This document shows positions 4,270-47,935 of a DNA stretch of 64,000 nt, piece after piece; within the stretch, counting starts at the first letter, position 1, and each line of letters starts with the position of its first letter. A program made the translations under genes and the position numbers. The stretch lies in sequence record PZ049338.1. The stretch is one strand, 5' to 3'. This DNA comes from a phage. The notes beneath the pieces were generated by a model, which saw only the letters and a program-made list of their open reading frames with translations, was not told where the DNA came from and did not search any database.

Positions 4270-4292
4270 AGTTAATCCACATATATTAAGAG
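4270..4292 (-). promoter_or_regulatory. 23-bp repeated element, inverted copy (CTCTTAATATATGTGGATTAACT on minus strand)
   Basis: 1 mismatch to copies at 25156-25178 and 47913-47935. Confidence 0.4.
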
Positions 4293-4315
4293 ATAATCCC
4301 TTAATACGTCCTACT

Positions 4316-4351
4316 TAAAACATTCTAGGTTATCCCTTCCTACCTTGTCAA
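4316..4351 (-). promoter_or_regulatory. sigma70-type promoter P1 (leftward): -35 TTGACA 4351-4346, -10 TAGAAT 4327-4322, 18-nt spacer
   Basis: hexamers read directly; AT-rich upstream. Confidence 0.5.
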
Positions 4352-4426
4352 CCTTACTTAGAAAATTCTTTCTTCTGGTTGACTCACCTGATAGTTACTT
4401 GGCTATTCAGCTTCACTATCTGGTAT

Positions 4427-4463
4427 GTGGTAGATTATAGGTTTAACCTTTCTACCTTGTCAA
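4427..4463 (-). promoter_or_regulatory. sigma70-type promoter P2 (leftward): -35 TTGACA 4463-4458, -10 TATAAT 4439-4434, 18-nt spacer
   Basis: consensus hexamers; shares CTACCTTGTCAA context with P1; AT-rich UP-like region. Confidence 0.6.
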
Positions 4464-4683
4464 TAAGATATTTTAATTTATCTTGCTGACCTTTACTACC
4501 TATCAGGCTTTCGCGTTGTTGCTGCGTCGTCCTGATATGATTAACTATACGCAATCTTTTCAGATATGCAAACTAATATTTTAATTATTTTCTAACTTTC
4601 TTTCATCTCACTGATTTATAACGGATTATTTCTTGATATTCTTTCTTGATTCAGTGGATAAGATACGGGATACGGCTTATCTA

Positions 4684-4693
4684 TCCCATCTAT
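4684..4693 (+). promoter_or_regulatory. TCCCATCTAT motif copy 2
   Basis: exact 10-mer. Confidence 0.35.
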
Positions 4694-4894
4694 AGCGTCA
4701 CCTTTCCACCTGGACAAATTGGAACATCAATCACCTTATCTATTCCCTACCTTTCCAGCTCATAGATTCATGCCTGATTGATGATCTTTCTTGTGAGCTG
4801 GAAGCTAAGAGATAACACCGCATGAATTAAAACTAGATAAAGGGCACTAGATAGAAACATGCGGAACGTTATCCCATACGTCTTAATTGCTATT

Positions 4895-4932
4895 ACACGG
4901 AAGAAAGGAAAGGAAGAAAGGAAGAAAGGAAG
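4895..4932 (+). repeat. polypurine tract (GGAAGAAAGGAAAGGAAGAAAGGAAGAAAGGAAGA)
   Basis: read directly. Confidence 0.7.
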
Positions 4933-5040
4933 ATACACCATACGGATTAATGCTTATCAAACTATCGTCGGGTAACGGTGCAATGATTAAGATTGATGCG
5001 ACCAATGGTCGTGTTATGACCTGCGGTCATGCGTACCTAT

Positions 5041-5198
5041 TATCAAAGTCAACAATCAAACGATGATTATCAAAGACGATTATCAAACGATAACTATCAA
5101 AGACGATTATCAAACGATAACCATCAAAGGATAACTATCAAAGGATAACTATCAAAGGATAACTATCAAAGGATAACTATCAAAGGATAACTATCAAA
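5041..5198. repeat. tandem array, about 12 units of 13-14 bp with core TATCAAAG/C (5 perfect GGATAACTATCAAA units at 5129-5198)
   Basis: read directly; iteron-like. Confidence 0.85.
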
Positions 5199-5803
5199 GG
5201 CTGGCATTTTAAACACCGACGTTTTAGCCTCACAAAATAACGGGAAGAAATATAGCTCAGGATACTTACTATTAGTAAGAACATAACCATGCTGGTTATT
5301 ATTACCATGCTATCTATGCGATGGCTTATCATTAGGTAGCTAACTATAACATCGTGCATCATATTCCATTGGTATCATTAGATGACTAATCATGTGCGTG
5401 CATAGTATATCACTTGAGATAATAACGCATGAATACTATATCACTTCCCATTATCAGCGGAGGTATATTAATCCCGTGAACTAATAGCCAACTAATTACT
5501 TATGATATAGTTGCCAATGTTATTAATAGATGAGGTATGGTATCATTTGTATATTAATAATAAGCAAGCTATCTATTCACTGGATGCAATTACAGTATTG
5601 TGCTTCATCCAATAGGCTGTATAATCGTTGTTACATTGTTAACGGTATATGTGCCGACCCACTTCCCCCTTTTTAAAAGTTGTGTGCGCAGCTAGCCCCC
5701 TATACCACCGCGTGAGAGTATGAGAATGAGGATACCCTAACCAATTAATGGGTGAGAGTGATTGCCCGTGGGTATGACCTCCCATCAGACAGTACTCATG
5801 ACC

Positions 5804-5813
5804 TCCCATCTAT
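5804..5813 (+). promoter_or_regulatory. TCCCATCTAT motif copy 3 (GACCTCCCATC also at 5776-5786)
   Basis: exact 10-mer. Confidence 0.35.
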
Positions 5814-5872
5814 CAGTGTCAGTAGAGGCCGAAGGCCTTGGTCTTACCAAAGGTAAGTGACTTCCCATCTAT

Positions 5873-5882
5873 TTTCACTTTC
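5873..5882 (+). promoter_or_regulatory. TCCCATCTAT motif copy 4
   Basis: exact 10-mer. Confidence 0.35.
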
Positions 5883-5896
5883 TTTCAGTGTAAACA

Positions 5897-5920
5897 GTGT
5901 AAATCTGTAAGAAAATTGAA
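5897..5920 (+). promoter_or_regulatory. repeat TTCAGTGTAA-N-TCTGTAA copy 1 (candidate late promoter or packaging-related element)
   Basis: near-identical copy at 6168-6188; TAATCTGTAAG also at 12433-12443 upstream of capsid gene. Confidence 0.3.
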
Positions 5921-6167
5921 AATTTTGAACTAAAGTTCATGTACGAAGGAGATAGAGATTGATAAGAGATTCTTAAACAGTTTCTTATATATCTCCTTCT
6001 TATCCATTCTTATATATCCTCTCTTCTCTCCTCTATAAAAGCCCCTCTTATATTTAAAAATCCATAAACCAATTACGCTGAACAAGAAGAAAGTATAAAG
6101 GAGGTTATGACCTTCCATCTGATTGATAAGATGAGTACCCATCAACTATTTTAATCTTTTCAGTGTA

Positions 6168-6188
6168 AGTCTGTAATGTTTTCCATTT
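6168..6188 (+). promoter_or_regulatory. repeat TTCAGTGTAA-N-TCTGTAA copy 2
   Basis: see copy 1; about 135 bp upstream of first late gene. Confidence 0.3.
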
Positions 6189-6322
6189 ATCAGTGCTATA
6201 TGTAACTGTAGCATCTATAAGGTTTATGTAATTAATAAATAGATAGATGGGTGGATGGTGGGAACTACATTCGCTGGAAGCGAAACTATTGCTTCTGGCA
6301 ATTATTAATTGAAGGAGTGAAC

Positions 6323-6709
6323 ATGTCTGACAATAACGAATTACTTGATTCCATTGTTGAAGGTCGCTCCGTCAAGACTGGACAGTTTGTGAAGGGTAAT
6401 ACTCAAGGTAAGGGCCGTCCGAAAGGTAGCCGAAACAAAATGACTCAACGAATGTTGAATCGTGTTGCTGAACGAAGTGAAGATGGTTTGTCTATGGAAG
6501 AAATCATGATGGATATCGCCCAAGACCCTCAAATGCCAGCAGAGCTTCGCTTTAAAGCAGCAGCTAAAGTTTCTGACCTCGTTTATCCTAAAGCATCTTC
6601 TGTTGAAGTTAAGATGGACGATAAAGAAAGCATGACTAAAGAACAGATTGATGCTCGCCTTAAAGCTTTGCTTAGTGGTGGCCATACAACTGAAGACACT
6701 GAGGACTAA
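6323..6709 (+). CDS. putative DNA-binding protein / terminase small subunit candidate (128 aa) with AT-hook-like GRPKGSR motif
   Basis: start moved to internal ATG 6323 (GAAGGAG SD); sits 2 genes upstream of large terminase; function by position only. Confidence 0.4.
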   Translation: MSDNNELLDSIVEGRSVKTGQFVKGNTQGKGRPKGSRNKMTQRMLNRVAERSEDGLSMEEIMMDIAQDPQMPAELRFKAAAKVSDLVYPKASSVEVKMDDKESMTKEQIDARLKALLSGGHTTEDTED

Positions 6710-6711
6710 AT

Positions 6712-6948
6712 ATGATTGGACTGATATTTGATATTCTTATTCCACGCTTCCGTACTTCTGATTTTTGCCTTGAGGGTAATGATGCTGAAGGTTATGACGC
6801 TGTGTGTGAATATACGTCACGAGATGTAGGAGAACGCTTCGATAAGATAGCAAGTATCAGTTACTTTCAACTCTTCGGGTTTGTTCTGTTTCCTAAAGTA
6901 CATCTAGATTCGATTCGTACGTTTACAAGAGAAGACGTACTGAAATAA
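6712..6948 (+). CDS. hypothetical protein (78 aa)
   Basis: ORF track; SD GAGGA in end of preceding gene. Confidence 0.4.
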   Translation: MIGLIFDILIPRFRTSDFCLEGNDAEGYDAVCEYTSRDVGERFDKIASISYFQLFGFVLFPKVHLDSIRTFTREDVLK

Positions 6949-7276
6949 ATTCCTTGCCAGCCAGCGAGGTTGACTTTCGTCGGGTAAGTCGTGAAAGAAC
7001 CCGACCGCGAATTCAAAGTCTAGCTAGGGTGACAAGAGTATGACAGGCTGTCCTAGATAAGTGTCGGTACTCAACTAGATGTTGTATTGGATGTTAGGTA
7101 AGTCAAGAGAGACAAGCCACGGTCGGGGTCGTCCACGTTAAACATTAAAACCCCGCCCCTCGAATACACGACTGAAGATTTTCCAAATGACTAAAGGTTC
7201 AGAAAATTTTGCAGTTGCCGCTTTGCGGATTAGGGTGAGAGCCCTCGAAAGGTTTATAGTATACACGGAGGTAAGG

Positions 7277-8761
7277 ATGGATTTTAATGAAATCGACTTA
7301 GACTCCCTTCCGGAACATATCAAGTGGGAAATTATTGACTTACTAGAGGAAAGGGAAAGGGTCATTAAATATAATCGGATTAACGAATTCGAACCCTACG
7401 AGTTCCAAAAGAATTTTTATTCTGCAAGTGCTAAATTCAAAAGACGCTTCCTTTGTGCGGCTAACCGAGTTGGTAAGTCTTACTCTGAAGCGGTAGAAGT
7501 GTTTTATCATTTGTCAGGTCTGTACCCTGAATGGTGGGACGGACACAGATTTAAGAAACCAATCCTCTTATGGGCTGTTGGTATCACCGGTGACTCAACT
7601 CGAAAGGTGTTGCAGAAGGAGTTGTTTGGTACACCGATGGGCAAAGACCAAGATGCATTGGGAACAGGCGCTATCCCTCGTGACCTGATTGACATTGAGA
7701 ACATCGAGAAAGACGGTAACATCATCAAAATCGCAAAGGTTAAGCATCATGATAAAAATGGTGACTTTGATGGTTGGTCTACTATCGAATTCCGCTCAAC
7801 TCAACAGGGTGAGCACGTACTGATGGGTGCGACTGTAGATTATATATGGTTAGATGAAGAAGACCCGTTCAAGTCTATGGAAATCTATGCACAGTGCGTT
7901 ACTCGTACTGCTACTACTGGTGGTTTGATTACCATCACCGCTACTCCTGAGAACGGTTTGACGAAACTGGTAGACCTGTTCATGAAAGACACGTCAGGTT
8001 ACTTATATTTTCAGAATGCGACATGGGATGATGCTCCCCACTTAGATGAAGAAACTAAAAAAGAGTTGTTAGCATCTATTCCGACATGGCAGCACGAAAT
8101 GCGAAGCAGGGGGATTCCAATGATGGGCGAAGGTTTGATTTACGATATTGCAGAGTCTTCTATTATTACAGAGCCGATTGAGATTCCATCTCACTGGCGT
8201 AGACTTGCAGCAGTTGATATTGGTATCAGTCACGATACTGCGGTTGTATGGACAGCTTACGATGCTGCTACTGACTGTATCTATGTATATGACTGCTACT
8301 CAGCAGATGCGGGCGTTCCTGCTATGCACGCTACAGCTATTAATGCTCGTGGCAACTGGATTCCTGTTATTCTTCCACACGATGCTGATAACACTGAACG
8401 TGGTTCAGGTCGTAGTGTCGCGTCTTATTATGCAGAGGCTGGTGTCAACGTGATGCCTGAGACGTTCTATAATCCACTGGATTGGACGGGTAAGAAGAAT
8501 AACTTCGTAGAACCGGGCATTATGGAAATCCTTCAAAGGATGAAGACTGGTCGCTTTAAAGTGTTTAGCACTTGTGGCAAGTTCTTCGAAGAAATGCGTC
8601 GTTATCACCGTAAAGATGGCAAGATTGTCAAAGAATTCGATGATACAATGGACGCAGCACGATATTCAGCACTCTCAGTAATTGGACGTGGTGTAAGTGC
8701 AGGTGAAGCAAGTGCTGGCTACAATGCAGCATTCAATGATAACTGGAATTACAATTACTAA
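7277..8761 (+). CDS. terL: terminase large subunit (ATPase/nuclease)
   Basis: start moved to ATG 7277 (GGAGG SD); Walker A-like AANRVGKS; about 495 aa; position upstream of portal. Confidence 0.8.
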   Translation: MDFNEIDLDSLPEHIKWEIIDLLEERERVIKYNRINEFEPYEFQKNFYSASAKFKRRFLCAANRVGKSYSEAVEVFYHLSGLYPEWWDGHRFKKPILLWAVGITGDSTRKVLQKELFGTPMGKDQDALGTGAIPRDLIDIENIEKDGNIIKIAKVKHHDKNGDFDGWSTIEFRSTQQGEHVLMGATVDYIWLDEEDPFKSMEIYAQCVTRTATTGGLITITATPENGLTKLVDLFMKDTSGYLYFQNATWDDAPHLDEETKKELLASIPTWQHEMRSRGIPMMGEGLIYDIAESSIITEPIEIPSHWRRLAAVDIGISHDTAVVWTAYDAATDCIYVYDCYSADAGVPAMHATAINARGNWIPVILPHDADNTERGSGRSVASYYAEAGVNVMPETFYNPLDWTGKKNNFVEPGIMEILQRMKTGRFKVFSTCGKFFEEMRRYHRKDGKIVKEFDDTMDAARYSALSVIGRGVSAGEASAGYNAAFNDNWNYNY

Positions 8762-8779
8762 CAATTATAGGAGTTTAGA

Positions 8780-11143
8780 ATGTCAGATAATAAAATTACT
8801 GGCAACATCACAATTGATGAAGACACTCTGAGCACTCTCCAATACCAAGTTGGTACTTATTATAACCACGCTATTGGTTATCATGAAGGGGAACTGGGTG
8901 TTCGTGCTCGGATGGGTTGGGAATATTACTACGGTAACCTCCCAGAACCCGTCACAAAGGGCTCTTCTAAGTGGGTTGACCGAAGTGTATGGGAAAGTGT
9001 GAATGGTACGCTACAGGAGCTTGTAAGCGTTTTTACAAGTGGTGAGGATGCAGTTAAGTTCGCCCCGATGCACTCTAAAGATGCAGATGCTGCTATTGCA
9101 GCGACTAAGATGGTTAACAAGGTTCTTCTCCGTGATAATCCGGGATTCAACGTACTGCATGACGCTTTTAAAGAGTGTCTGATTGCGCGTAACTCGTTTA
9201 TCAAACGTTACTGGAAAGTTGAGAAGAAAGTATTCACTGAAGAATTCGATGGTTTAACCAAAGATGAATTAGATGTGTACCTCTCTGGTATTAAGGGAGA
9301 TATTATTGAGTTTTCCTCTGAGATTAAGGATATGTCAGAAGATGAAGACGGTGATAATATCATTGAGACCCATGCTGAAGAGCAAGAAGAAAATGAATTT
9401 GAACAAATCGAAGATGAACCACAGGCACAAGCTATTCCTGAAGACATGACCTCTGCTGGTGACTTGCAAGACGAGCCAGAACCAGAACCTGTCGAAGAAA
9501 CCGAAGCTGACAACGAAATTGCTGACATTGCTCCGGGTGCTTTAGCTAAGCCTGAAGAAGATTCCGAAGAAGAGGAAGAACAAAACGAAGAAGACCAACT
9601 CTTCTGCGGCATTGTTACCTATGAAGTTACAACCGAAGGTGTTTGCGTTGAATATGTTCCTTTCGAAGAAGTAATCATTGAACCTACGGCTCGTTCCTTG
9701 CATGATGCCAACTATATCGGCCATCGTGTTCGTAAATCCAAGGACGAACTGATTCTTATGGGCTTTGATGCTGATGTTATTGAAGAATTGAACCCAGCTT
9801 CGTCTGATATTGAAGCTGGAGTCATCGCTAACTCTCGTGTTAACAACCTGAACCCACTTAACGTGAGTGATGTGTTGTCTGTAGGTGACGAGAAGGCAGA
9901 TAAACTGTGGTTGCATGAAAACTACATTAAGACATCTCTCATCTCTGGTCGTTTGGAGATTTTGCAGGTGTTTACACTCAACGGTCAGATTCTGGAAGTG
10001 AACCGTGTCAACGAATTCCCATTCGAGACAATGACTCCGTTCCCAATTCCGGGTTCTGTGTGGGGTGAATCAGTATTTGACATTACTAAAGATGTACAGG
10101 ATTTATCTACGACGCTGATTCGTGGTATGATTGATAACATCATGAACGCTAACTTCCGTAGATATGAAGCCATCAAAGGTCAGTACGACCGAGAATCATT
10201 ACTGAACAACCGTCCGGGTGCAGTCGTTGAGGTTCTATCTCAAGGTGCTGTTACTCCTTTCCCATATCACCAATTACCACAAGGTATCGACAACCTGCTT
10301 ACTTACATTAATAGCAAGAAGGAAGAACGTACTGGTGTTAGTAAGGTAGGGCAAGGTCTTGACCCAAACGTGTTTAAGAACGATAACTCGACTGCCACTG
10401 TAAATATGGTCATGAGTGCTGCTCAAAACCGTTTGCGCATGGTTGCTCGTAACATCGCTCAACGCGGTATGATGAGTTTGATGCTGTCCATCTACAACTT
10501 GATTCGTGAGAATGGTAAGACACCTATCAACGTTGAAACAGCTAATGGTAATGTAACACTTGACCCACGTAAACTGCCACATCGTACTCAAATGATTGTA
10601 GCGGTAGCGGTAGGTGATGGTGAGCGTCGTGAACGTGCAGCAGGTTTGCAGAGTTTGATGATGTCTATGACTCAGATTCCTCAATTGCAACAGTTCCTGC
10701 AACCGAACAACGCATACTACTTAGCAACTCAACTGTTTGAGACTATGGGTATCTATGATGTGGAAAACTATCTGACTCCAATTGATAAGTTACCTCCTCC
10801 GAAACCAGACCCGATTCAAGAACTGACTATCCAGCAGTTGCAGGAGACAGTTAAGCAGATTGGTGTTACAACACAGAAGATTCTGTCCGACGTTAATAAT
10901 GAAGACCGTAAATCAGAGTTTGAGCAGCAGAAAGCTGCGGATGAAATGAGTCTGAAGATTAACGAGTCCCGCTCTAAGGTAGACAAGGAAGCTGAGGAGG
11001 TGGAGATTAAGCGACTGGAATTGCAACTTAAACGTGAGGAGTTGGCTATCCAACGTGAGTTGGTTGAGCTTAAGAAACAAGAGATGCTTGTTGAGGCTCA
11101 ATTGGAAGCACGACAGACTCGCCCGGTTTCACTTGGGAGGTAA
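8780..11143 (+). CDS. portal protein (787 aa) with long acidic insertion
   Basis: size and position between terminase and scaffold; Glu/Asp-rich stretch encoded about 9340-9600. Confidence 0.7.
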   Translation: MSDNKITGNITIDEDTLSTLQYQVGTYYNHAIGYHEGELGVRARMGWEYYYGNLPEPVTKGSSKWVDRSVWESVNGTLQELVSVFTSGEDAVKFAPMHSKDADAAIAATKMVNKVLLRDNPGFNVLHDAFKECLIARNSFIKRYWKVEKKVFTEEFDGLTKDELDVYLSGIKGDIIEFSSEIKDMSEDEDGDNIIETHAEEQEENEFEQIEDEPQAQAIPEDMTSAGDLQDEPEPEPVEETEADNEIADIAPGALAKPEEDSEEEEEQNEEDQLFCGIVTYEVTTEGVCVEYVPFEEVIIEPTARSLHDANYIGHRVRKSKDELILMGFDADVIEELNPASSDIEAGVIANSRVNNLNPLNVSDVLSVGDEKADKLWLHENYIKTSLISGRLEILQVFTLNGQILEVNRVNEFPFETMTPFPIPGSVWGESVFDITKDVQDLSTTLIRGMIDNIMNANFRRYEAIKGQYDRESLLNNRPGAVVEVLSQGAVTPFPYHQLPQGIDNLLTYINSKKEERTGVSKVGQGLDPNVFKNDNSTATVNMVMSAAQNRLRMVARNIAQRGMMSLMLSIYNLIRENGKTPINVETANGNVTLDPRKLPHRTQMIVAVAVGDGERRERAAGLQSLMMSMTQIPQLQQFLQPNNAYYLATQLFETMGIYDVENYLTPIDKLPPPKPDPIQELTIQQLQETVKQIGVTTQKILSDVNNEDRKSEFEQQKAADEMSLKINESRSKVDKEAEEVEIKRLELQLKREELAIQRELVELKKQEMLVEAQLEARQTRPVSLGR

Positions 11144-11146
11144 TGA

Positions 11147-11371
11147 GTGAACCTAACTGCATTAAGTAAATTAAAAGGATTAATGGAGGGGGATGACCTC
11201 TCCAACCTTTTACAAGAGTTAAAAAATGATATTGCCCTGAGTATAGTTCAGACTTCATTCGACCAAAAGGAAAAGAGGGAAGAGCTATACATGCTAACTA
11301 AAGCTATAGATGGTTTACAGGTTAAGCTTCAGGAGTATGTTAACGAATATGATAAGATTCAGGAGATTTAA
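11147..11371 (+). CDS. small hypothetical protein (74 aa, GTG start)
   Basis: ORF track; GGGAGG SD upstream. Confidence 0.4.
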   Translation: MNLTALSKLKGLMEGDDLSNLLQELKNDIALSIVQTSFDQKEKREELYMLTKAIDGLQVKLQEYVNEYDKIQEI

Positions 11372-11373
11372 TA

Positions 11374-12429
11374 ATGGCTAATGACGCAATCGAAGTACAA
11401 GAAGTAGTAACTAACCCAATGTTCATTGATACTGACAACTTTAACTTCTTTGACCTTGAAGATGTAGTTGCTGATGATGGTAACGAACTCGGCTATAATA
11501 CTAAGCAGACTGGCAAAGACCTGATGCCTAAAGAAGAAGTAGCTGAAGCCGATGAAGACGAAGGTGATGAGGATACTGATGCCCTCCCTCCGGAAGAAGG
11601 CGAAGAAGGTTACGAAGATGAAGACGAAGAAGGTAATGAAGGCGAAGCTGACGAATCCGAACAAGCTGAAGCAGGCGAAGACGGTGAAGAAGTTGACTTT
11701 GAGACTTACGAAGTAACTCTGCCTAATGGCGAAGTCATAGTTCTCAGTGATGCTATCGCTGGTTACAAAAACGCTCAGGCGCTGGCGGCAGAACGCGAAG
11801 AGTTCGAGAGCGTGCGTAATAAATTCACTGATGAATCTGAGAAAGTAGCTAAGTATCTTGATTTGGCTCGTCTGGAAGCTGACCGTGTAATCGAAGATTA
11901 TGAAGACTTCGACTGGGCAGCATACAAGAAAGATGACCCGGTTGGTTATGTAGAGAACCGTGAGTTCTTAGACCGCTATCGTGCGCGTCGTCAGGAGATT
12001 ATTGAAGCTCAGGAATCCTTAGAAGCAGAACGTGCTGCCAAAGAAGCTGAAGACTTTAAAGAGAAAGCCCGTGAAGCAGGTGTTATTCTGGCTCGTGATA
12101 TTCCGGGTTGGAACAACGATATGTACCAGAGCCTCATGCTGTACGCAGTAGAGAATGGTGCGAATGCTGAAGAAATTGCTAACTCTGTTGACCCAACTAT
12201 TTTTAAGATTCTGCACAAAGCAATGCAGTATGATAAGGGTAAGCAGGTCGTAAAAGCTAAAGTTAAGCGTGTTGGTGGTTCCCCGACTAAAGTAGCTAAG
12301 CCGTCTGCGAAAGTGACGACTACTACCTCTCCGGAGACCGGAAAACGTAAAGCAATCCTTAAGAAAATGGAGAATGGTGGCCTGAACGAGAGCGAACTGC
12401 GTAATTCTTTCAGTTTCTTGGAAGATTAA
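11374..12429 (+). CDS. scaffolding protein (acidic, coiled-coil-like)
   Basis: position before capsid gene; strongly acidic low-complexity N-terminal half; AGGAG SD. Confidence 0.6.
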   Translation: MANDAIEVQEVVTNPMFIDTDNFNFFDLEDVVADDGNELGYNTKQTGKDLMPKEEVAEADEDEGDEDTDALPPEEGEEGYEDEDEEGNEGEADESEQAEAGEDGEEVDFETYEVTLPNGEVIVLSDAIAGYKNAQALAAEREEFESVRNKFTDESEKVAKYLDLARLEADRVIEDYEDFDWAAYKKDDPVGYVENREFLDRYRARRQEIIEAQESLEAERAAKEAEDFKEKAREAGVILARDIPGWNNDMYQSLMLYAVENGANAEEIANSVDPTIFKILHKAMQYDKGKQVVKAKVKRVGGSPTKVAKPSAKVTTTTSPETGKRKAILKKMENGGLNESELRNSFSFLED

Positions 12430-12580
12430 TGGTTAATCTGTAAGGGTTTTATGATAAACGTACTAGAATAGTATGTTAACAACAAGGAAATGCCTTGTGT
12501 GTTCAACAAAGAGTAACGAACGTGTTCGTGCTCACTGAGCCGCAAGGCAAACAACAATATTATCAGAGGAGAATTCTCTA

Positions 12581-13546
12581 ATGGCAGATACTACTTTAGT
12601 TTCTTATGACCTGAATGGTAAGAAACTTTCCTTTGCAAACTGGATTTCTAACCTGTCTCCTACCGAGACCCCGTTCGTTTCCATGACTGGCAAAGAAGCA
12701 ATTAATCAGACTCTGTTCCAATGGCAGACTGATACGCTGGAAACCGCTAACCCGAACAACGCAGTTGTTGAAGGTTCTGCTGCTGAAGCTCCAGTTCGTA
12801 GCTCTACCACTGTACTGAACAACGTTACTCAGATTCTGCGTAAAGTGGTTCGTGTTTCTGATACCGCAAACGCTCTGGCGAACTACGGTCGTGGTCAGGA
12901 ACTCCAGTACCAGATGGAAAAAGCTGGTAAAGAAATCAAGCGTGACCTCGAAGTTGCTCTGCTGCGTAACGGCGCTAAAGTTGACGGTAACGGCACTACT
13001 GCTCGTAAGACCGCTGGCTTTACTGCTCTGGTTGCTGCTAAAGGTGTAGCTGACCCGGACACTGGTGCTGTTGTTCATAAAGAGACTGCTGTTAAGTCTA
13101 AGATTTCTGAAGCAGAACTGTTTGACCTGACGTACAACCTGTACCTGTCTGGTTCTAACGCGAACATCATCATGTTCCACCCGAAACACGCAAGCTTCTT
13201 CGCTTCCCTGATGGACACTCCGGCTGCTGGTACTAACCGCATGAAGATGTTCGACGGTAGCGATACTAAGTTTAACCAGTATGTTTCTAGCGTAGTTGAC
13301 CCGCTGGGTCAGTTGTACAAGCTGATTCCTAACCGTTGGATGGATGAGACTGAGATCTACTTCTTCACTCCTTCTGACTGGGATGCTGCTCGAATGGATT
13401 GGGGTAGTCGTGGTACTACCACTGTTGCTGGTGCTCACGAACACGCATTGCGTATTACTGGTGGTATCTTCTCTCAAGGTGATAACCAGAAGCACAACAA
13501 CATTCAACCATTCATTACTGTATATATGTGGCGTCGCATTTCTTAA
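12581..13546 (+). CDS. major capsid protein (321 aa)
   Basis: position after scaffold, GAGGAG SD, size typical; not motif-verified. Confidence 0.65.
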   Translation: MADTTLVSYDLNGKKLSFANWISNLSPTETPFVSMTGKEAINQTLFQWQTDTLETANPNNAVVEGSAAEAPVRSSTTVLNNVTQILRKVVRVSDTANALANYGRGQELQYQMEKAGKEIKRDLEVALLRNGAKVDGNGTTARKTAGFTALVAAKGVADPDTGAVVHKETAVKSKISEAELFDLTYNLYLSGSNANIIMFHPKHASFFASLMDTPAAGTNRMKMFDGSDTKFNQYVSSVVDPLGQLYKLIPNRWMDETEIYFFTPSDWDAARMDWGSRGTTTVAGAHEHALRITGGIFSQGDNQKHNNIQPFITVYMWRRIS

Positions 13547-13559
13547 TAGGAGTTAGTCC

Positions 13560-15266
13560 ATGCCTTTAATGAGATTACGAAATGTAGGGAAGACTGGTGT
13601 AACAACAGATATCCCTTCATATGATTTAAAACCCTCGGATTGGTCTTGGGCTAACAACGTTCGATTCCAAGCAGATAGGGTTCAGAAAGTGGGTGGCTCT
13701 AAGGCCGCCCTAACTCGTCTTATGCCACAAGAACATCCACTTGGTGTCGTACAGTGGCCTCTTACTGAATCACTGTTATATGGTACTTGGAAGCCTGGGA
13801 CATCTAAGGGTAGTTTATGGGTGGCTCGTGGTAACTCACATGAGAATATTTCAAAAAGAGCCTCCGGAAGTAGTACACCTTTTGAATATGAGTGTTCTCC
13901 AGAGTATTCATGGGACTATACAACACTCTCTAACACAGTTATTTTTAATACTCGTCTTTCAGACCCACAAGGTATTAAGAATGGTCAAGCTTACTTCTCA
14001 GACCTTCCGGGTTGGGGTAAGCCCACAGCATCTACTACTGCAAACTGGAAAGCTAACCGAATTCGTGCATTTAAGAACTACTTACTTTGCATGGGTATGT
14101 GGGAGAATGGTGTAGAGTTTCCTCAGCGTGTACGATGGTCTGATGTTGCAATGGTCGGTTCACTTCCTTCTAATTGGTATGAAAATGACCAGACTAAAGA
14201 TGGTGGATTTAACGACCTGACAGACTCATTATCACACATCATTGATGGTCGTCCTTTGCGTGACTCCTTTGTTGTTTATACAAACCGAGACACATTCATC
14301 ATGGACTACGTTGGTGGTACAATGGTGTTCAACTTCCGTAAAATCTTCTCAGATTCAGGGATGCTTGCACCAAACTGTTGTGTTGAGTTTGAAGGTCAGC
14401 ACTTTGTTATTTCAGAGGATGACATTTTCGTTCACAACGGTTCCACTCGTAGGTCTGTTGCTACAGGTCGTGTGAAAGATTACCTCATGGCTCAGATTGC
14501 CTCTAACAACCACGAAGCTACTCGTGTATATGCATATCCTGCTCGTAAAGAGATTTGGATTACATATGTTAGTGATGGTAACACTCCATCTAACGCTGAC
14601 GATAAGGTTTGGTCTTGTGATAAGGCTGCAATCTGGTCTTGGCAGTACGATACTTGGTCTTTTACAGACTTACCTAATATCTATGATATTGGTATCGGAT
14701 TATCACCTGAGACTGACTCTCGTTTCTGGTATGATAGTGAGTTCGTACCAACACCTGGAGACCCGACACAATATGGTGACTATCCGTGGGAAGATCCTAA
14801 GATTCCTGAAGATATTTGGAAGAACAAGGTTCAGGGGTTCACAAGACATGTAATGTTCGGTGCCTCATCTGATATGTGCTTCTACAACCTTGATAATGGT
14901 TACTATTGGGAGAAGTATGATGCGGTGTCTAAGACTATTTCCAAAGTTCCAGTTGTTTGTGAATTAGAGCGTTCTGCACTGGATTTCGATGAACAAGAAC
15001 CTGATATCTCTTACCATAAATGGTGGAGGGCAGTTTACCCACAGATGGGTGGTACTGGTACAGTTCGATTCTATGTTGGTGGCTCTAACTCCCCTAACGG
15101 TGAACCTGTTTGGGATTCTTGGCAGGACTTTGATATCGAACTTGATTCTAAAGTTGACTGCTTCTCAAACTACAGATACCCAGCAATTAAACTGCTTGAT
15201 TCTACGGAAGGTGAGTGGTCAATGGTTGGATATGATGTTGAATACTTCAAAGAAGGGAATAGATAA
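13560..15266 (+). CDS. virion structural protein (568 aa), possible tail/adaptor component
   Basis: late block position; AGGAG SD. Confidence 0.5.
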   Translation: MPLMRLRNVGKTGVTTDIPSYDLKPSDWSWANNVRFQADRVQKVGGSKAALTRLMPQEHPLGVVQWPLTESLLYGTWKPGTSKGSLWVARGNSHENISKRASGSSTPFEYECSPEYSWDYTTLSNTVIFNTRLSDPQGIKNGQAYFSDLPGWGKPTASTTANWKANRIRAFKNYLLCMGMWENGVEFPQRVRWSDVAMVGSLPSNWYENDQTKDGGFNDLTDSLSHIIDGRPLRDSFVVYTNRDTFIMDYVGGTMVFNFRKIFSDSGMLAPNCCVEFEGQHFVISEDDIFVHNGSTRRSVATGRVKDYLMAQIASNNHEATRVYAYPARKEIWITYVSDGNTPSNADDKVWSCDKAAIWSWQYDTWSFTDLPNIYDIGIGLSPETDSRFWYDSEFVPTPGDPTQYGDYPWEDPKIPEDIWKNKVQGFTRHVMFGASSDMCFYNLDNGYYWEKYDAVSKTISKVPVVCELERSALDFDEQEPDISYHKWWRAVYPQMGGTGTVRFYVGGSNSPNGEPVWDSWQDFDIELDSKVDCFSNYRYPAIKLLDSTEGEWSMVGYDVEYFKEGNR

Positions 15267-15490: not shown

Positions 15491-15502
15491 GGAGCTAATA
15501 AA

Positions 15503-16735: not shown

Positions 16736-16754
16736 GAGCCTTCGGGCTCTTTTC
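16735..16754 (+). terminator. intrinsic terminator (AGAGCC ttcg GGCTCT + TTTTC)
   Basis: hairpin with UUCG loop and T-run directly after stop codon. Confidence 0.65.
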
Positions 16755-16770
16755 TTATAGGAGAATAGAA

Positions 16771-17631: not shown

Positions 17632-17642
17632 GGAGAGATTAG

Positions 17643-24128: not shown

Positions 24129-24554
24129 TTGAAAAAGAGATATTACAAGAAGAAAGAAGGGTCGTTGAAAGGGACTGGATACGACTCCTTTTTAGAGAAG
24201 CATGTTCATGAGAACATAATCCCGAATGCCAGATTCCATGATAAGGGAGATAAGGTGTCTTATACCGTTTCTCATACTTACGAACCTGATTTCGTATTAG
24301 AGAAAGATGGTAAGACTTACTTAGTGGAAACTAAGGGTAGGTTCAGGGATTCAAATGAGGCTAGGAAGTACATCTTTATTAGAGAATTCTTACCAGAGAA
24401 TACTGAATTGGTATTTGTATGGGAGAAGTCCAACACCATATTCCCGTTCGCCAAAAAGAGGAAGGATGGGACTAAAGCAACTCATGAGGAATGGGCCATT
24501 AAGAACGGCTTTCGGAACTGGGTTCAAACATCATTCACAGAGGAAGTGTTATGA
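24129..24554 (+). CDS. endonuclease I-like Holliday junction resolvase (PD-(D/E)xK)
   Basis: HTYEPDFVL...YLVETKG and IREFLPE align by eye with recalled T7 gene 3 endonuclease (HTYTPDFLL...FVETKG, IREQHPE). Confidence 0.7.
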   Translation: MKKRYYKKKEGSLKGTGYDSFLEKHVHENIIPNARFHDKGDKVSYTVSHTYEPDFVLEKDGKTYLVETKGRFRDSNEARKYIFIREFLPENTELVFVWEKSNTIFPFAKKRKDGTKATHEEWAIKNGFRNWVQTSFTEEVL

Positions 24555-24970
24555 TTAAGCATATAGCTACATGGGTTAAACAAGTTGTATTTGGGGCTGG
24601 TATTGTGGCAGTCCTTGGTCTATTCCCACTAGGTTACAAATATGGGGTAGATTCTGAACACATTGCTCAACGAGCAGAGTATACCAAAGAACTTGAAACC
24701 TTAGTCAAACGTTATGACCAGACTCAAGGTATCTTATCAGCATTGGCTCAGGGTCAGCAAGTTTCATTGACCCTTTTACGCACTAAACAGGATGGAGTGA
24801 AAAGTGACGTTAATAAGTACAATCAAAGCAGTAATGCTCGTATTTCTTGTCTTGATGATGAGTGGTTGCGGGTCTACAACAACTCCATTACCGGAGATAA
24901 GCATAAATCCGGAAGCAAGGTTGATGGAAAGACCACAGGAAAGGTTAACACTGGAGATGGGAGCAAATAA
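24551..24970 (+). CDS. i-spanin (Rz-like)
   Basis: N-terminal TM (VVFGAGIVAVLGLFPLG) then charged periplasmic domain; o-spanin ORF nested out of frame. Confidence 0.6.
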   Translation: MIKHIATWVKQVVFGAGIVAVLGLFPLGYKYGVDSEHIAQRAEYTKELETLVKRYDQTQGILSALAQGQQVSLTLLRTKQDGVKSDVNKYNQSSNARISCLDDEWLRVYNNSITGDKHKSGSKVDGKTTGKVNTGDGSK

Positions 24971-25310: not shown

Positions 25311-26030
25311 CTATCGTTGGGGGGGTTTAACTTTCTCGATAGCTGCTCTAAAGATTGCAGCACGGTGGAGTTTATCAGATATTTCCGGAGAACGTAACTT
25401 AGTCTTTGGAACAATAATTGAGACATAAGCACTATCAGCAGAATCGAAAGGATATTGACTAATTGCCCTAACATCTAAAGCCCTCAAACCATGAATCTTC
25501 ACAGGATATTTCTTTGTGATGTAAATGTGCTTGAAAACCTCGTCCATTCGCTCTCTCCAAGCCGGGGAGCGTATAGAACGGTGTCTACCAACACAACCTA
25601 TGGCTACACGTTCAAACCTCTCACACAGCCTCTCAAGACGTTCTAGAGACCCTTCGGAGTGCCATACAGGTACTGCCTTGCTTAGTAGGTGTTCTGGTAA
25701 CTTCGCTAGGAGCGCGTCGTTTTCTTCATCAGTGCCGCCAATAACGTCAGGTACAATAAACCACCCGATACGAGCATAAAGAGACTCAACCCACTTATAA
25801 TACTTATTCCAATGTTTATCCCAGTCAACTATCTCACCTTTACGATTCGATTTCATCCAAACAGAGAAAGCACCATTATCAAGAATCAAGTCACAATCTA
25901 ATTGAACTATACGCTTAATCTGGTCAGGGCGATGGAAAGAAACAAGGGCTCCACCTCCACGGTAGAGTGCCTTGATTAGCTCATCACCTTCACCACCCCA
26001 AATAGGGCCACCATGAAAGTGTATTGTCAT
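25311..26030 (-). CDS. hypothetical protein (239 aa), coupled to NADAR gene
   Basis: ORF track; 4-nt overlap with upstream gene. Confidence 0.55.
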   Translation of the reverse strand: MTIHFHGGPIWGGEGDELIKALYRGGGALVSFHRPDQIKRIVQLDCDLILDNGAFSVWMKSNRKGEIVDWDKHWNKYYKWVESLYARIGWFIVPDVIGGTDEENDALLAKLPEHLLSKAVPVWHSEGSLERLERLCERFERVAIGCVGRHRSIRSPAWRERMDEVFKHIYITKKYPVKIHGLRALDVRAISQYPFDSADSAYVSIIVPKTKLRSPEISDKLHRAAIFRAAIEKVKPPQR

Positions 26031-36002: not shown

Positions 36003-36062
36003 TATTCCACACCTGCAATTAATGTTACTGTATATTTACGACCACCTCTAACATCTTCAACC

Positions 36063-36524
36063 TTAGTTACAATACCTTCCATTATGATTCCTTAATCGGT
36101 AATAAATTGCGGATTCAGTTCTGCCCAATCGTGCAGCTATAGTTTTAACAGGAACACCTGCTCTCCACATCTCAAAGCAATCGTCATGACTTTCTCTGTA
36201 ACGATTTACGTTTGTTTCAGTAGCATGTTCAGAGCCTTCAAGAATTTCAAGGTGTTCTGGGTTACAGCAAGCCCTGTTCCTGCATTTGTGATTAATCTCA
36301 CAACCTTCAGGGATTGAGCCGTTAAGTTCTTCCCACACTAACCTGTGGTACATCACCCAAGTATTTTTACCAATATTCTTGCGGAAGTACCCATCACTGT
36401 TAAGTTTATGAGAAACGGGGATTTTACACCCCGTATTAGTAATATCAAATACAAGTTTCTTTGGCATATTCAATGGGTATGGAACCAGCTTGCACCAAGC
36501 ATTGAGTCTGAAGCTAATGGACAT
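36063..36524 (-). CDS. HNH homing-type endonuclease
   Basis: INHKCRNRACCNPEHLEILEGSEHATETN HNH-like core; overlaps 3' end of polymerase gene. Confidence 0.65.
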   Translation of the reverse strand: MSISFRLNAWCKLVPYPLNMPKKLVFDITNTGCKIPVSHKLNSDGYFRKNIGKNTWVMYHRLVWEELNGSIPEGCEINHKCRNRACCNPEHLEILEGSEHATETNVNRYRESHDDCFEMWRAGVPVKTIAARLGRTESAIYYRLRNHNGRYCN

Positions 36525-44762: not shown

Positions 44763-44771
44763 TAATACACC

Positions 44772-46568
44772 TTAGAATGGTCGACTATCATCACGACTGA
44801 CTTCATCAGAGTCAGGCTCCTCTCCCGGGATAGAGAAAGGATTCTTAGGGTCATACTCATCAGCAGTACGCTGTCTCAATCGACCTGTAACTGGGTTATA
44901 GGAAGTTGGGACAATACCTGTCTGACCGAAGTTACGGTCTTTCAGGAGACGAATCTGAGACAAGTTACGAGCATCACCATCTGCCTGCTTGTTACGCTCA
45001 AAGCCCAGAATTAACTGGGAGAATCGCATAAGAGCACGCGAACCTGTGAACTGCACTTCCTGAACCTGACCACCTTCCTCGTGCGGAGCACCAGTTTTAG
45101 GTGGGTTCAAGTGACTGAATACGAAACATGTGAACTCCAGTTCGTTACACAGTCCAGCCAGTTCTACAGCAATACGAGCAACTTCGGTGTTAATCTCAGT
45201 CGCTGATAAGTGTGATACCAGTGCGGTGATGTTATCTAAGAAGATGAACTTCACACCATGCTCCACAACCCAGAAACGCATACAGCGTTTGATATCTTCC
45301 CAATCATTCTGACCAAAGTTCCGGTAAAGGAACAGATGGCCATCATACTTCAGAGCTTCACTCTTAAGCAGTTCAGGGTCGAACTCAACATCTGGGCGAT
45401 GGAAAGGTATATTAGCAGATTTACCTGCGATGTTTTTGATTGTGTTACCTACAGTCTCTTCCAACATGAAAGCGCCCACTTTCTCTTTGTGGACGTTAAT
45501 GAGGTGAGCACTAAGTTCGTGAGCAAGCAGTGTTTTACCACCACCCACACCACCACCAATTGCAATCACTTCACCATATCGGAGACCGAAGGTTAACTCT
45601 GTAAGACCTTCCCAAGGGAATGATAAACCCCACTCAGGCTTCTTCAGCGCATCTTCCAGACACTCAGCTACAGTCGTTGAGCCAGCCGGAGATTCTTTTG
45701 CAGCATTGAAGCGTAAGCAGTTATTAAGTTCGAGGTCACGACCGTCCATGAGGAGGTCATTAGCGTCCTTAATTGGAGCACCATCTTTACGGAACCCTTT
45801 AGGGATTCGGGCAATCTTAATGTTCGGATACATCGCTCGAATCTTGTTCACAGCATCATCACCAGCTTCATCGTTATCCATGCAGACAACAACTTCAGCG
45901 AATGATTCTACGAATGCACGGTCACGAGAGAACGCAGCCGCTGCTGATTTCGAGCCATCCGGTAAAGAAACACATGCTGGTTTGTATGTACTCTTAGAGT
46001 TCTCTGTCAATACCTGAAAACCAGACATTGCACTGAGTTCGTCTTCAAATACAAACAACTTACCTGTGTACACATCACCAAGACGTGCTTGGGACATACC
46101 GAAGAAACTACAACCTGATGCTGCACCTACAGCATAAAAACCTTTAGGTTCTAAGGTGCGAACTTTGTAAGCACGGATTGCTCCGTCCTTTTCCTTCGGG
46201 TAAAACTGAGAGATAGGTTCCCGGTTAGTGGATGAAAGACCAATACGAACACCAAAACGTTCGGCAACTTCTTTCTTCACACCACGAATGGTGCAGTTCT
46301 GAATAGGAAGCTCTTGGACTTCCGCTAAACGTTCTTGTACTTCTTCCTCGGTCAGTTCACGGAATTCATGACGAACTCCTTCCCACTTCTCGCGGTTACC
46401 TTCTTCAACCTGTTCGTAAAAACCATCACGACTACAGTAAACCCACTGCTCGCCGGTCTCAACATTTTCCCAATGCTGAAGATGGTTGCCAGTTCGGTCA
46501 TGGCCTGCTGCCGTACAGGTTGGACATGCAGAATCACCAAGGATTCTTTTGTTTCCATAAACTTTCAT
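44772..46568 (-). CDS. primase-helicase (Zn-finger + TOPRIM + DnaB-like helicase)
   Basis: N-terminal CPTC Zn finger, TOPRIM-like CMDNDEAGDD, Walker A GGGVGGGKT. Confidence 0.8.
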   Translation of the reverse strand: MKVYGNKRILGDSACPTCTAAGHDRTGNHLQHWENVETGEQWVYCSRDGFYEQVEEGNREKWEGVRHEFRELTEEEVQERLAEVQELPIQNCTIRGVKKEVAERFGVRIGLSSTNREPISQFYPKEKDGAIRAYKVRTLEPKGFYAVGAASGCSFFGMSQARLGDVYTGKLFVFEDELSAMSGFQVLTENSKSTYKPACVSLPDGSKSAAAAFSRDRAFVESFAEVVVCMDNDEAGDDAVNKIRAMYPNIKIARIPKGFRKDGAPIKDANDLLMDGRDLELNNCLRFNAAKESPAGSTTVAECLEDALKKPEWGLSFPWEGLTELTFGLRYGEVIAIGGGVGGGKTLLAHELSAHLINVHKEKVGAFMLEETVGNTIKNIAGKSANIPFHRPDVEFDPELLKSEALKYDGHLFLYRNFGQNDWEDIKRCMRFWVVEHGVKFIFLDNITALVSHLSATEINTEVARIAVELAGLCNELEFTCFVFSHLNPPKTGAPHEEGGQVQEVQFTGSRALMRFSQLILGFERNKQADGDARNLSQIRLLKDRNFGQTGIVPTSYNPVTGRLRQRTADEYDPKNPFSIPGEEPDSDEVSRDDSRPF

Positions 46569-46635
46569 GACTTAATCCTTTTCCATGTCATTAAGCTTGC
46601 TGCGGGTATTACTTAGTGCCTTAGGTTAGATAACA

Positions 46636-47310
46636 TTACAGAGTGTCATAGTAGTCTGCGCGATTATGCAGACACCAGTCACCCGACTCAACACGGTTAC
46701 TGTCGCCTTGGTCTTCATCAATGTGATAAATCCAAGCCTTTGCGAAGGAACCATCATCCAGTTGGATTTCAACCTGCGTACGGTTATAGAAACCATTCTC
46801 AGGGTCACAGGCACTGTACCCTTCCAGCATGTCGTATGCACCAGTCAGACCTTCCAGAGGTGCTTCAAATACATCAACAACAACCTGCTTGCCAGACTTG
46901 TTAGCCTTAAGGTTCACGGAAGGGAAGTAGGAGCCACCGTAGCGATATAAATCGAACTGGTCTACAGTCACACCCTTACTTACAAATTCACCGCCGCCAC
47001 GAGCGTTTACGTGGAAATTCTGCATGTTGCGACGCAGAGAGCCATAAGTTGCGATGAATACTTTACCGTCTGAAGGAATTACTAAGTTCTTTGACATTAC
47101 TTGTCCTGTTTTAGGTTGTAGATAATATTTAACTTCGACAAATCGCCATGTGTTCTGGAGGTTCTCTGCCATTTCTTTTGCTTCTGGGTAAGTTAAGCCA
47201 CAGCCAAGCTGATAACCTTCCTCACCCTTACTCATGCGACCAATCAGTAAATAACGAACTTCATGGTCACCTGTTAGTGGTTCTTTAATTGAGAGCTTCA
47301 TCTTATACAC
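46636..47310 (-). CDS. gamma-glutamyl cyclotransferase-like (AIG2/GGCT fold) domain protein
   Basis: FIATYGSLRR ... DMLEGY ... YNRTQV fits GGCT pattern. Confidence 0.55.
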   Translation of the reverse strand: MYKMKLSIKEPLTGDHEVRYLLIGRMSKGEEGYQLGCGLTYPEAKEMAENLQNTWRFVEVKYYLQPKTGQVMSKNLVIPSDGKVFIATYGSLRRNMQNFHVNARGGGEFVSKGVTVDQFDLYRYGGSYFPSVNLKANKSGKQVVVDVFEAPLEGLTGAYDMLEGYSACDPENGFYNRTQVEIQLDDGSFAKAWIYHIDEDQGDSNRVESGDWCLHNRADYYDTL

Positions 47311-47366
47311 TTCTCACCCCTTGTTATGTTCGACAAAGGCCACTCCGAAGAATGACCTTTAGCAAA

Positions 47367-47903
47367 TTACCAGAGCTTATTAAGAGCCAGATTATTAGTA
47401 ATCACTGGTGTGCTTTCGTAATCATCCAGAGATGTTGGGCCCATACTAATAGCACCATATCCAGTTACGTGAACACTTACACGGGTCATCTGGTCGAAGA
47501 ATTCCTTCATCTGAGACGGTTCTGTGATGTTCTTTCCAGCAACACCAAGAACCTGTACACGCTGACCAGAGGAGCGCAGACCCTTCTTAGTGACCACTGC
47601 CGTAACTGTCTGACCAACAACAGTGGGCTTAGTTAATACCTCAAAGAACACACCGGATATGTCAGTTACACCCTGTTCCATATGCATTGTTGCATAGTTA
47701 ACTTTGTAGGTGTTTGGAACTTCATATACACGGGTAGATTTGAAAGTAGTACCAATGTAGTTATCTGCATTGAAGTCACGGGAACGGCTACGACGTTCAG
47801 CCTCAATGAGAAGTGATTGGTAATAACCTTCCAGTATTTCACCAACACCTTTACGAGTTGTACTTAACCCGATTACTCGGGAATATCCAATAATTAAGAA
47901 CAT
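47367..47903 (-). CDS. hypothetical protein (178 aa)
   Basis: ORF track; 23-bp repeated element immediately upstream. Confidence 0.5.
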   Translation of the reverse strand: MFLIIGYSRVIGLSTTRKGVGEILEGYYQSLLIEAERRSRSRDFNADNYIGTTFKSTRVYEVPNTYKVNYATMHMEQGVTDISGVFFEVLTKPTVVGQTVTAVVTKKGLRSSGQRVQVLGVAGKNITEPSQMKEFFDQMTRVSVHVTGYGAISMGPTSLDDYESTPVITNNLALNKLW

Positions 47904-47912
47904 TAAGAATCT

Positions 47913-47935
47913 CTCTTTATATATGTGGATTAACT
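47913..47935 (+). promoter_or_regulatory. 23-bp repeated element CTCTTTATATATGTGGATTAACT (copy B)
   Basis: identical to 25156-25178; 10 nt from start codon of 47367-47903. Confidence 0.45.

Follow-up and report, generated by a model that had tools for sequence, protein, structure and literature searches.

Transcription in the phage family Grimontviridae has been described for phage 7-11, in which two sigma-70 early promoters and eight late promoters dependent on the phage protein gp47 (GTAAtg-N16-aCTA) were found, and no middle promoters (PMC8948821). The late promoters were mapped upstream of 7-11 genes 1, 8, 12, 16, 22, 28, 48, and 69, and a MEME search in 7-11 by Lavysh et al. returned no over-represented motif (PMC8948821). 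In phiEco32, the promoters read by gp36 consist of a single 9-bp element, tAATGTAtA (AATGTA centered at -11.5), with transcription starting 6-8 bp downstream (PMC8948821; PMC12276001, summarizing Savalia 2008 and Pavlova 2012). Grimontviridae are without the gp79 co-activator, and gp47, which is ~15% identical to gp36, reads a bipartite promoter (PMC8948821). Here, we analyze a 64,000-nt stretch of phage DNA (sequence record PZ049338.1; "the window" hereafter means this whole stretch) and report a 23-bp element, AGTTAATCCACATATATAAAGAG when read along the local gene direction, which has three copies in the window and recurs in related phages. We favor, with a rough probability of 0.45, the interpretation that it is a family-specific single-element promoter lacking a -35 box, which would constitute a third promoter class in Grimontviridae. 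A full-text literature search for the motif returned only unrelated PCR primers, and the element is apparently undescribed.

The window derives from a Grimontviridae podophage and shares ~97% identity with the plasmid-dependent Salmonella phage PKM.Hi.22.6 (OR053651), a podophage of the same family; phage 7-11 is more distant. Its genes are arranged as in phiEco32 and 7-11, with the late structural genes on the plus strand (about 6250-25080), a long early/middle block on the minus strand, early promoters in a large non-coding region between the divergent ends, and a bidirectional terminator between the convergent ends. A sequence-only reading of this DNA had claimed the 23-mer at three distant loci, one of them holding an inverted copy with a single mismatch, and our search recovers the same set, with exactly three matches in the window at up to three mismatches and none in 100 dinucleotide-preserving shuffles, the chance expectation being no copies. 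The surroundings that it gave for each copy are also borne out: past the end of the minus-strand block for copy b, before the 47367-47903 gene for copy c, and downstream of early promoter P1 for copy a. The copies and their immediate neighbors are as follows.

4270-4292, plus strand: copy a, AGTTAATCCACATATATTAAGAG, one mismatch, inside a 2.8-kb non-coding region (about 3400-6250)
25156-25178, minus strand: copy b, AGTTAATCCACATATATAAAGAG, an orphan after the last minus-strand gene, facing a bidirectional terminator
47913-47935, minus strand: copy c, AGTTAATCCACATATATAAAGAG, occupying the 33-nt gap between genes 47937..48476 (minus) and 47367..47903 (minus)
4322-4351, minus strand: sigma-70-type early promoter P1, TTGACA-18-TAGAAT, 11/12 consensus positions
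4434-4463, minus strand: second sigma-70-type early promoter, TTGACA-18-TATAAT, 12/12
25088-25108, bidirectional: intrinsic-terminator hairpin dividing the late (plus) from the early/middle (minus) block
47367-47903, minus strand: gene downstream of copy c, 178 aa, PHROG 23983, no assigned function

Copy c begins 1 nt past the stop codon of 47937..48476 and ends 9 nt ahead of the ATG of 47367..47903, its 3' AAAGAG forming the Shine-Dalgarno sequence of that gene at the same 9-nt distance. Copy b lies 133 nt beyond the stop of 25311..26030 (minus) and 47 nt ahead of the hairpin at 25088-25108. Copy a is directed toward the late plus-strand genes, head-on to the early promoters, and lies ~23-45 nt downstream of the predicted P1 start; its reverse complement would fall at about +23 to +45 in a P1 transcript. 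Around or across this copy lie two short inverted repeats (GGATAACTA-ATC-TAGTTAATCC at 4257-4278 and TATTAAGAG-ATAAT-CCCTTAATA at 4284-4306), which would fold into hairpins in the RNA of the early leader; PKM.Hi.22.6 has them in altered form, and they were not seen in 7-11.

When all copies, including those from the relatives described below, are aligned on an invariant CACAT, the element resolves into three parts. A core of ~9-14 bp is invariant within a genome and specific to a lineage, reading A-R-T-W-AATC-CACAT in the window lineage and ATTATTG-CACAT in other genera. These two core alleles, AATCCACAT and ATTGCACAT, do not follow the host in their distribution, and all copies of one genome change together. 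After CACAT comes a stretch of 7-9 bp made of A and T only, in which copies differ solely by A/T exchange (ATATAA, ATAATA, AATATA, TATAAT). The 3' end is a purine block (AAGAG, AAGGG, AAGGA) that varies by purine exchange only and that stands 6-12 nt before an ATG or GTG, as a Shine-Dalgarno sequence, in 13 copies across five lineages. The same block is kept where no gene follows, in copy b and in copy a and its orthologs, and therefore belongs to the element itself rather than serving only as a ribosome site. Full copies are without exception non-coding, and they are co-oriented with their flanking genes, save one per genome that faces the late cluster. The 23-mer is without dyad symmetry and is not the G+C-rich dyad plus T run of an intrinsic terminator. 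No -35-like sequence is conserved upstream of the copies in any lineage, with an exception in Privateer, where three copies share another 12 bp. A 13-nt core, AGTTAATCCACAT, also occurs at window 48450-48462 (minus), within the first codons of gene 47937..48476; we discount it as a coding coincidence, a synonymous change breaking the core in a metagenomic relative (Logan contig L142).

We looked for further copies in PKM.Hi.22.6, 7-11, BUCT695, GAP52, and Privateer, which represent five genera (the LAh_6, APT65, and Vp_R1 groups were left out), and found 4-7 copies at orthologous places in every one: four in PKM.Hi.22.6, five in 7-11, four full and three core-only in BUCT695, six in GAP52, and four in Privateer. 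The sequence-only reading had proposed a search of relatives and regarded lack of conservation there as counting against the element; what we find is conservation throughout. The fourth copy of PKM.Hi.22.6 and the five of 7-11, where the element reads AGTWAATCCACATAWWATAARGR and four copies are on the minus strand, are these.

PKM.Hi.22.6, 76301-76323: copy d, AGTTAATCCACATATAATAAGAG, two mismatches, outside the window, with an ATG 8 nt downstream
7-11, 84120, minus strand: 7 nt ahead of the GTG of gp139
7-11, 71777, minus strand: 9 nt ahead of gp114
7-11, 58825, minus strand: 12 nt ahead of gp094, the ortholog of 47367..47903
7-11, 30491-30513, minus strand: past the last gene, gp031, and ahead of a terminator; ortholog of copy b
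7-11, non-coding region, plus strand: ortholog of copy a

Aeromonas phage BUCT695 carries AATTAATCCACATATATAAAGGG in front of two genes, gp049 (the ortholog of the copy c gene) and gp084, and also 43 nt upstream of a PnuC-like gene, along with an inverted copy in its non-coding region and three core-only copies (238+, 8540-, 8994-). Cronobacter phage GAP52 and Proteus phage Privateer have theirs in corresponding places, with ATTATTGCACAT replacing the core in every copy, and by blastn this variant is multi-copy in all Crifsvirus and Privateervirus records. Copy c thus has orthologs upstream of 7-11 gp094, BUCT695 gp049, and GAP52_071, and inverted orthologs of copy a exist in 7-11, GAP52, BUCT695, and Privateer. 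At the level of single bases, the copy c element is 23/23 identical in the metagenomic relative represented by contig L142 while its flanks are only 76% and 73% identical (at a ~75% background, 0.75^23 is about 0.001). A second relative (L143) shares it at 22/23 positions. Copy a forms an island of similarity to 7-11 (83% over 30 nt) within otherwise unalignable DNA. On these comparisons, the element is under purifying selection and its copies are not chance occurrences; a chance repeat is ruled out by the shuffles together with the conservation in relatives. Outside the family, phiEco32 has no copy of the element, and IMG/VR scans with the core pattern, the downstream protein, and the terminase returned only chance matches or distant phages.

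Several copies head short units that run from the element to a terminator and hold 0-3 genes. In 7-11, the copy at 71777 is followed by gp114-gp112 and a terminator at 70683-70707; in Privateer, the copy at 37438 is followed by gp045, gp044, and a terminator at 36084-36106, and the copy at 27238 by gp027 and a terminator at 26861-26883; in the window, copy b is followed by the terminator at 25088-25108 with no gene between. The orthologs of copy b in GAP52, BUCT695, and Privateer head the last operon of the strand, which comprises PnuC or a small gene, an endonuclease, and spanins. The flank downstream of copy b (TAATTCT...CTTAAC/CTTACA) is common to the window, GAP52, BUCT695, and Privateer. 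The window and 7-11 have no PnuC gene, and their genes for the endonuclease and the spanins are on the plus strand (window 24129..24970). Copies of this b type are separated from the next start codon by 43-130 nt or are followed by no gene.

The element is distinct from the published promoter classes. The window encodes an ortholog of gp47 and carries gp47-type promoters.

31477-32046, minus strand: extracytoplasmic function (ECF)-type sigma factor, ortholog of 7-11 gp47, region 4 present (Pfam Sigma70_r4_2)

Nine gp47-type promoters (GTAAGn-N16-ACTA) are found in the window, at 5907, 6173, 12440, 17546, and 23869 on the plus strand and at 46639, 44260, 39690, and 33148 on the minus strand, mostly orthologous in position to those mapped in 7-11; nine such clean matches indicate that the late-promoter class is conserved in the PKM lineage. 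We rejected the element as a member of this class: no window copy has (N)CTA 16 nt past a GTAA-like hexamer, the 7-11 copies would have a spacing of 16-18 nt with ACTA in only 2/5 of them, and those copies (gp139, gp114, gp094, after gp031, and the non-coding region) coincide with none of the eight mapped positions. The two classes are alike in that both occur in the same family and in the same window, with a CAC-containing block just upstream of the presumed start (CACTA versus CACAT), but the most conserved bases of the element would fall in the unconserved spacer of gp47 promoters. A sigma-70 promoter was likewise set aside: a conserved -35 is missing upstream of the copies in all lineages, and a consensus scan does not call them. 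A -10-like hexamer does lie inside the element, as TATAAT in PKM.Hi.22.6 copy d and in the 7-11 and GAP52 copies, and as TATATA or TATATT in the window.

The phiEco32 gp36 promoters come from the same supergroup and a phage of the same layout, and they too are short, A/T-rich single elements with no -35 box, present in few and highly conserved copies. A candidate P6 site of phiEco32, located by motif scan at position 1677 (TAATGTAGA-AGGAGTATAAA-ATG), abuts a Shine-Dalgarno sequence 14 nt before the ATG. The element nevertheless differs from them in sequence and in length (23 versus 9 bp), and no copy matches TAATGTATA within one mismatch on either strand, the nearest being TATGTG on the antisense strand. 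The window sigma factor also has the region 4 that gp36 lacks. TGATGT-type motifs predicted by Guzina and Djordjevic differ from the element as well (PMC4331800). In layout, the element resembles the T7, T3, and SP6 promoters. Like them, it is uninterrupted, asymmetric, and 23 bp long; an A/T-rich 5' arm leads to a lineage-specific block at about -8 to -12, a TATA-like stretch precedes the start (presumed in the case of the element), the initial transcript is purine-rich, and phage lineages differ at the specificity block. An ungapped comparison with the SP6 promoter gives 13/23 identities. The likeness is one of layout only. Scans of the large window open reading frames detected no gene for a single-subunit RNA polymerase, and none is annotated in the five relatives. 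T4-type phages carry mobile promoter/stem-loop cassettes (PeSLs), short regulatory cassettes that precede several genes and flank variable gene insertions. The element shares with them the repetition of a short cassette before several genes of one phage genome, but it is without a stem-loop and its copies are orthologous across genera. A lambda boxA-like antisense reading (CTCTTTA) was discarded because the orientation is wrong in 3/4 copies, and resemblances to IHF, sigma-32, and Tus/Ter sites are partial matches only, as judged by eye against consensus sequences.

We favor a promoter since the element is oriented and non-coding, varies as promoters do, keeps its purine block where no gene follows, changes its core in concert, heads element-to-terminator units, and has a precedent in phiEco32. 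The concerted change of the core, which does not track the host, suggests a phage-encoded reader. Under this interpretation, 9-14 bp of core at about -8 to -20 would confer specificity, the 7-9 bp A/T-only stretch after it would melt, and transcription would start at or just before the purine block, which would double as a Shine-Dalgarno sequence where a gene follows directly. Each copy would head one transcription unit: copy c would drive 47367..47903 and downstream genes; copy b may once have driven the PnuC/lysis cassette and, as an orphan now, would yield an RNA of at most ~80 nt ending at the terminator; and copy a would fire rightward across the early promoters, toward the repeat-rich non-coding region and the late genes. 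The reader could be the host core enzyme with a phage factor, or gp47 in a mode that needs no -35. The sequence-only reading had left function open among an operator, a promoter, and a processing or translation-control element; a promoter or another DNA-level site fits best, while a purely translational or processing element is disfavored by copies a and b and their orthologs, which are without a nearby start codon, and by the position of copy a on a strand along which no transcript is known to run.

Several observations weigh against a promoter. Lavysh et al. described only early and late classes in 7-11, although the sites of the element were not probed (PMC8948821). No RNA polymerase was found among the large window open reading frames (ORFs) scanned with Pfam or PHROG (30 ORFs between the two, not every one by both) or in the annotations of the five related genomes. 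The only sigma factor recovered when a family sigma hidden Markov model was run against six-frame ORFs of five genomes is the gp47 ortholog, whose consensus does not fit the element; 7-11 gp094, a marginal match at E = 0.098 considered as a second sigma factor, fails on inspection of the alignment. Three neighboring proteins compared with PDB sequences show no likeness to a solved DNA-binding or sigma structure. The fixed fusion to a Shine-Dalgarno sequence in most copies would also suit a role at the RNA level, and antisense pairing accounts equally well for the conserved place of the inverted copy, a short way downstream from the early promoters. A promoter leaves unaccounted for the core-only copies of BUCT695 (238+, 8540-, 8994-), in which neither the A/T nor the purine module is present. 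That transcription starts at the element, at which base, and with which form of polymerase, we infer from sequence.

Antisense pairing is the main alternative, although we consider it unlikely. Here, the leader of the early transcript, carrying the inverted copy a (CUCUUAAUAUAUGUGGAUUAACU), would pair with the Shine-Dalgarno regions of the sense copies, in trans or after processing, and block translation or make a ~22-bp substrate for RNase III, possibly helped by a phage ProQ/FinO-domain protein. Compared with copies b and c, the complement of copy a has 22/23 matching positions, AAGAG block included, and it lies at +23 to +45 of a transcript from a near-consensus early promoter. An inverted copy also stands shortly downstream of a sigma-70-type promoter in 7-11 (about +88), GAP52 (about +42; promoter 74-46), and Privateer (88034-88006), while in BUCT695 a weaker promoter lies beside it (TTGAGA-17-GATAAT at 402-430). 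Consensus promoters 23-88 nt upstream in four lineages suggest that the antisense strand is transcribed. In 7-11, two promoters upstream of gene 151 were confirmed by primer extension (PMC8948821), and we equate them with the annotated sites at 101-129 and 196-222. Although no gene follows copy a, its purine block, the would-be partner of the anti-Shine-Dalgarno stretch, is conserved, and two antisense core copies lie inside the BUCT695 early operon (8540-, 8994-). The family encodes ProQ/FinO-domain proteins, whose link to the element is putative. All copies of a genome have the same core allele, and a concerted core change would simply preserve complementarity, with no specificity protein required. 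However, the A/T exchanges relative to copy a put mismatches, not wobble pairs, in the middle of the duplex, and in BUCT695 and Privateer the inverted copy departs from the sense copies at its 5' edge. Occlusion of a ribosome site cannot account for the b-type copies, given their distance of 43-130 nt from a start codon or the lack of any gene; as no terminator follows the antisense copy, a discrete small RNA is not predicted; and by a crude calculation, the duplex has an energy advantage of only about 8-10 kcal/mol over other ribosome sites. In T4 lysozyme (gene e) and FinP/traJ/FinO control, the complement of a ribosome-binding site is carried on an earlier or abundant transcript, and gene e has a promoter right in front of its ribosome site, transcripts from which could avoid pairing. 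The parallel lies in the ribosome-site complement on an early transcript and in a FinO/ProQ-domain protein that is phage-encoded here; the complement in our case is kilobases away in the early leader, not adjacent, and one antisense copy would serve several targets. A combination with the promoter is conceivable, in which pairing would silence early read-through and later transcripts starting inside the element would escape, as in T4 lysozyme control. That the element belongs to a regulatory circuit new to this phage group, either a third transcription machinery (a phage factor on host core reading a T7-style 23-bp promoter) or a one-to-many antisense regulon with a ProQ/FinO-type chaperone, is possible, though we hold it as doubtful.

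An operator for a phage DNA-binding protein other than RNA polymerase, whose binding would form a polar roadblock, repress, activate, or serve replication, seems to us improbable. It would account for cores that stand alone in BUCT695, for core alleles that are lineage-specific and do not follow the host, and for the placement of copy a, where a bound protein just downstream of the early promoters would form a roadblock to early transcription and shut them off. Yet unlike most operators, the element has no dyad symmetry, a roadblock directly before start codons within the early operon is without obvious use, the protein searches made yielded no candidate DNA-binding protein, and 7-11 early transcripts stay constant during infection (PMC8948821). 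Still less probable is a translation-initiation or RNA-processing cassette acting in cis, as an A/U-rich ribosome-binding region or an endonuclease site with no role at the DNA level. The 13 copies with a purine block 6-12 nt before ATG or GTG speak for it, as does an Srd-like protein annotated in 7-11, GAP52, and Privateer, the T4 counterpart of which stimulates RNase E. It leaves unexplained copy a and its orthologs, which have no start codon in reach and lie on a strand without a known upstream promoter, the b-type copies 43-130 nt from the next gene or with none, and a 14-nt 5' core that is far longer than a ribosome site needs and changes in concert. We give little credence to a site-specific nick or genome-end (terminal-repeat boundary) signal. 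Localized single-strand interruptions do occur in T5, phiKMV-like, and LUZ24-like phages, and the linear GenBank record of 7-11 (NC_015938) opens inside an a-type copy (...CCACATATAA, then TAAGAG..., with the record ending in ...AGTAAATCCACATATAA), a coincidence with a chance of about 0.0013. The GAP52 record stops 3 nt past its copy; as the 7-11 and GAP52 records presumably come from a shared sequencing group, their openings are not independent, and the A24, PKM, and Privateer records open elsewhere. PhageTerm gave a "novel end type" for Privateer (PMC7881722). A block at window 5655-5745, CCACTTCCCCCTTTTT...GCAGCT|AGCCCCCTATACCACCGCGTG (AGCC), is kept in 7-11, GAP52, A24, BUCT695, and Privateer; its counterpart by homology in the phiEco32 record is the right boundary of a 193-bp terminal repeat (...CTCCCCCTTTTT...GCGGCT|AGGCAC), so the physical genome end is likely near window 5697 and not at copy a. 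An end at copy a would cut the 7-11 early promoters off from their genes, and a nick site explains neither the Shine-Dalgarno fusion nor the co-orientation with genes. The idea that the core is a host DnaA box (TTWTNCACA), recruiting DnaA for transcription or replication control, is to us barely credible, even though TAATCCACA and TATTGCACA each match the relaxed consensus at 8/9 and the two lineage differences fall exactly on its two degenerate positions. Position 2, a contact T, is mismatched in every copy, three 7-11 copies reach only 7/9, and the box covers only 9 of the 23 conserved bases. Five perfect boxes, TTATCCACA, stand within ~190 bp of the non-coding region of GAP52 (443-631) and A24, where the element differs; because GAP52 and A24 carry perfect boxes elsewhere, these phages evidently use consensus boxes where DnaA is wanted. 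Perfect boxes are absent from the window, 7-11, BUCT695, and Privateer, and those of Crifsvirus may mark a DnaA-dependent origin in that genus only.

Other features of the window were recorded alongside. The ProQ/FinO-domain protein discussed above is encoded as follows.

60598-61350, minus strand: ProQ/FinO-domain protein, 250 aa, PF04352, E = 3.6e-9

Orthologs occur in 7-11, GAP52, and BUCT695, one of them annotated as "RNA chaperone," and a second small protein of the window, 168..539 (minus), matches the same PHROG (18901). The first early gene (ATG at 3378) is preceded by a leader of ~940 nt (window 3379-4315) that extends from the early promoters. This leader is G+C-richer and hairpin-rich, has no Rfam match, and is shared in part with 7-11 (3582-4001, at 62%); leaders of comparable length exist in 7-11 and BUCT695. 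A tandem array of 10.9 copies of the 14-bp unit AACTATCAAAGGAT at 5051-5200 and a short GAAAGGAA array at 4899-4933 are candidate iterons or packaging-protein sites. An Rfam scan at gathering thresholds and a tRNA scan of the whole window gave no matches.

Relative to PKM.Hi.22.6, the window is without 8.96 kb (PKM 13408-22365), in which a second head protein and the tail genes are encoded, with the junction at 13375-13381. The major-capsid ORF 12581..13546 is a fusion, its final ~55 codons being derived from the 3' part of a tail-protein gene. The gap reflects either a deletion mutant or a mis-assembly, and a phage with this genome is probably not viable. Small indels relative to PKM.Hi.22.6 are present at the 36004-36474, 31270-31265, and 44774 junctions of the window and include an HNH endonuclease ORF (36063..36524) adjoining the DNA polymerase gene, and the endonuclease VII gene of PKM (54163-54528) is absent in the window.

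Phage 7-11 serves as the experimental model of the family and has been described with two promoter classes and no middle promoters (PMC8948821). A conserved, oriented, multi-copy element at orthologous sites in five genera implies that the 7-11 promoter map is incomplete, and what is missing from it would be either a promoter class with its own specificity factor or a circuit operating at the RNA level. The core alleles AATCCACAT and ATTGCACAT offer a ready-made swap pair for finding the factor that recognizes the element. As the family includes the plasmid-dependent phages PKM.Hi.22.6 and PKM.Lu.22.1, which are considered as tools against the spread of resistance plasmids, the timing of their genes is also of practical value.

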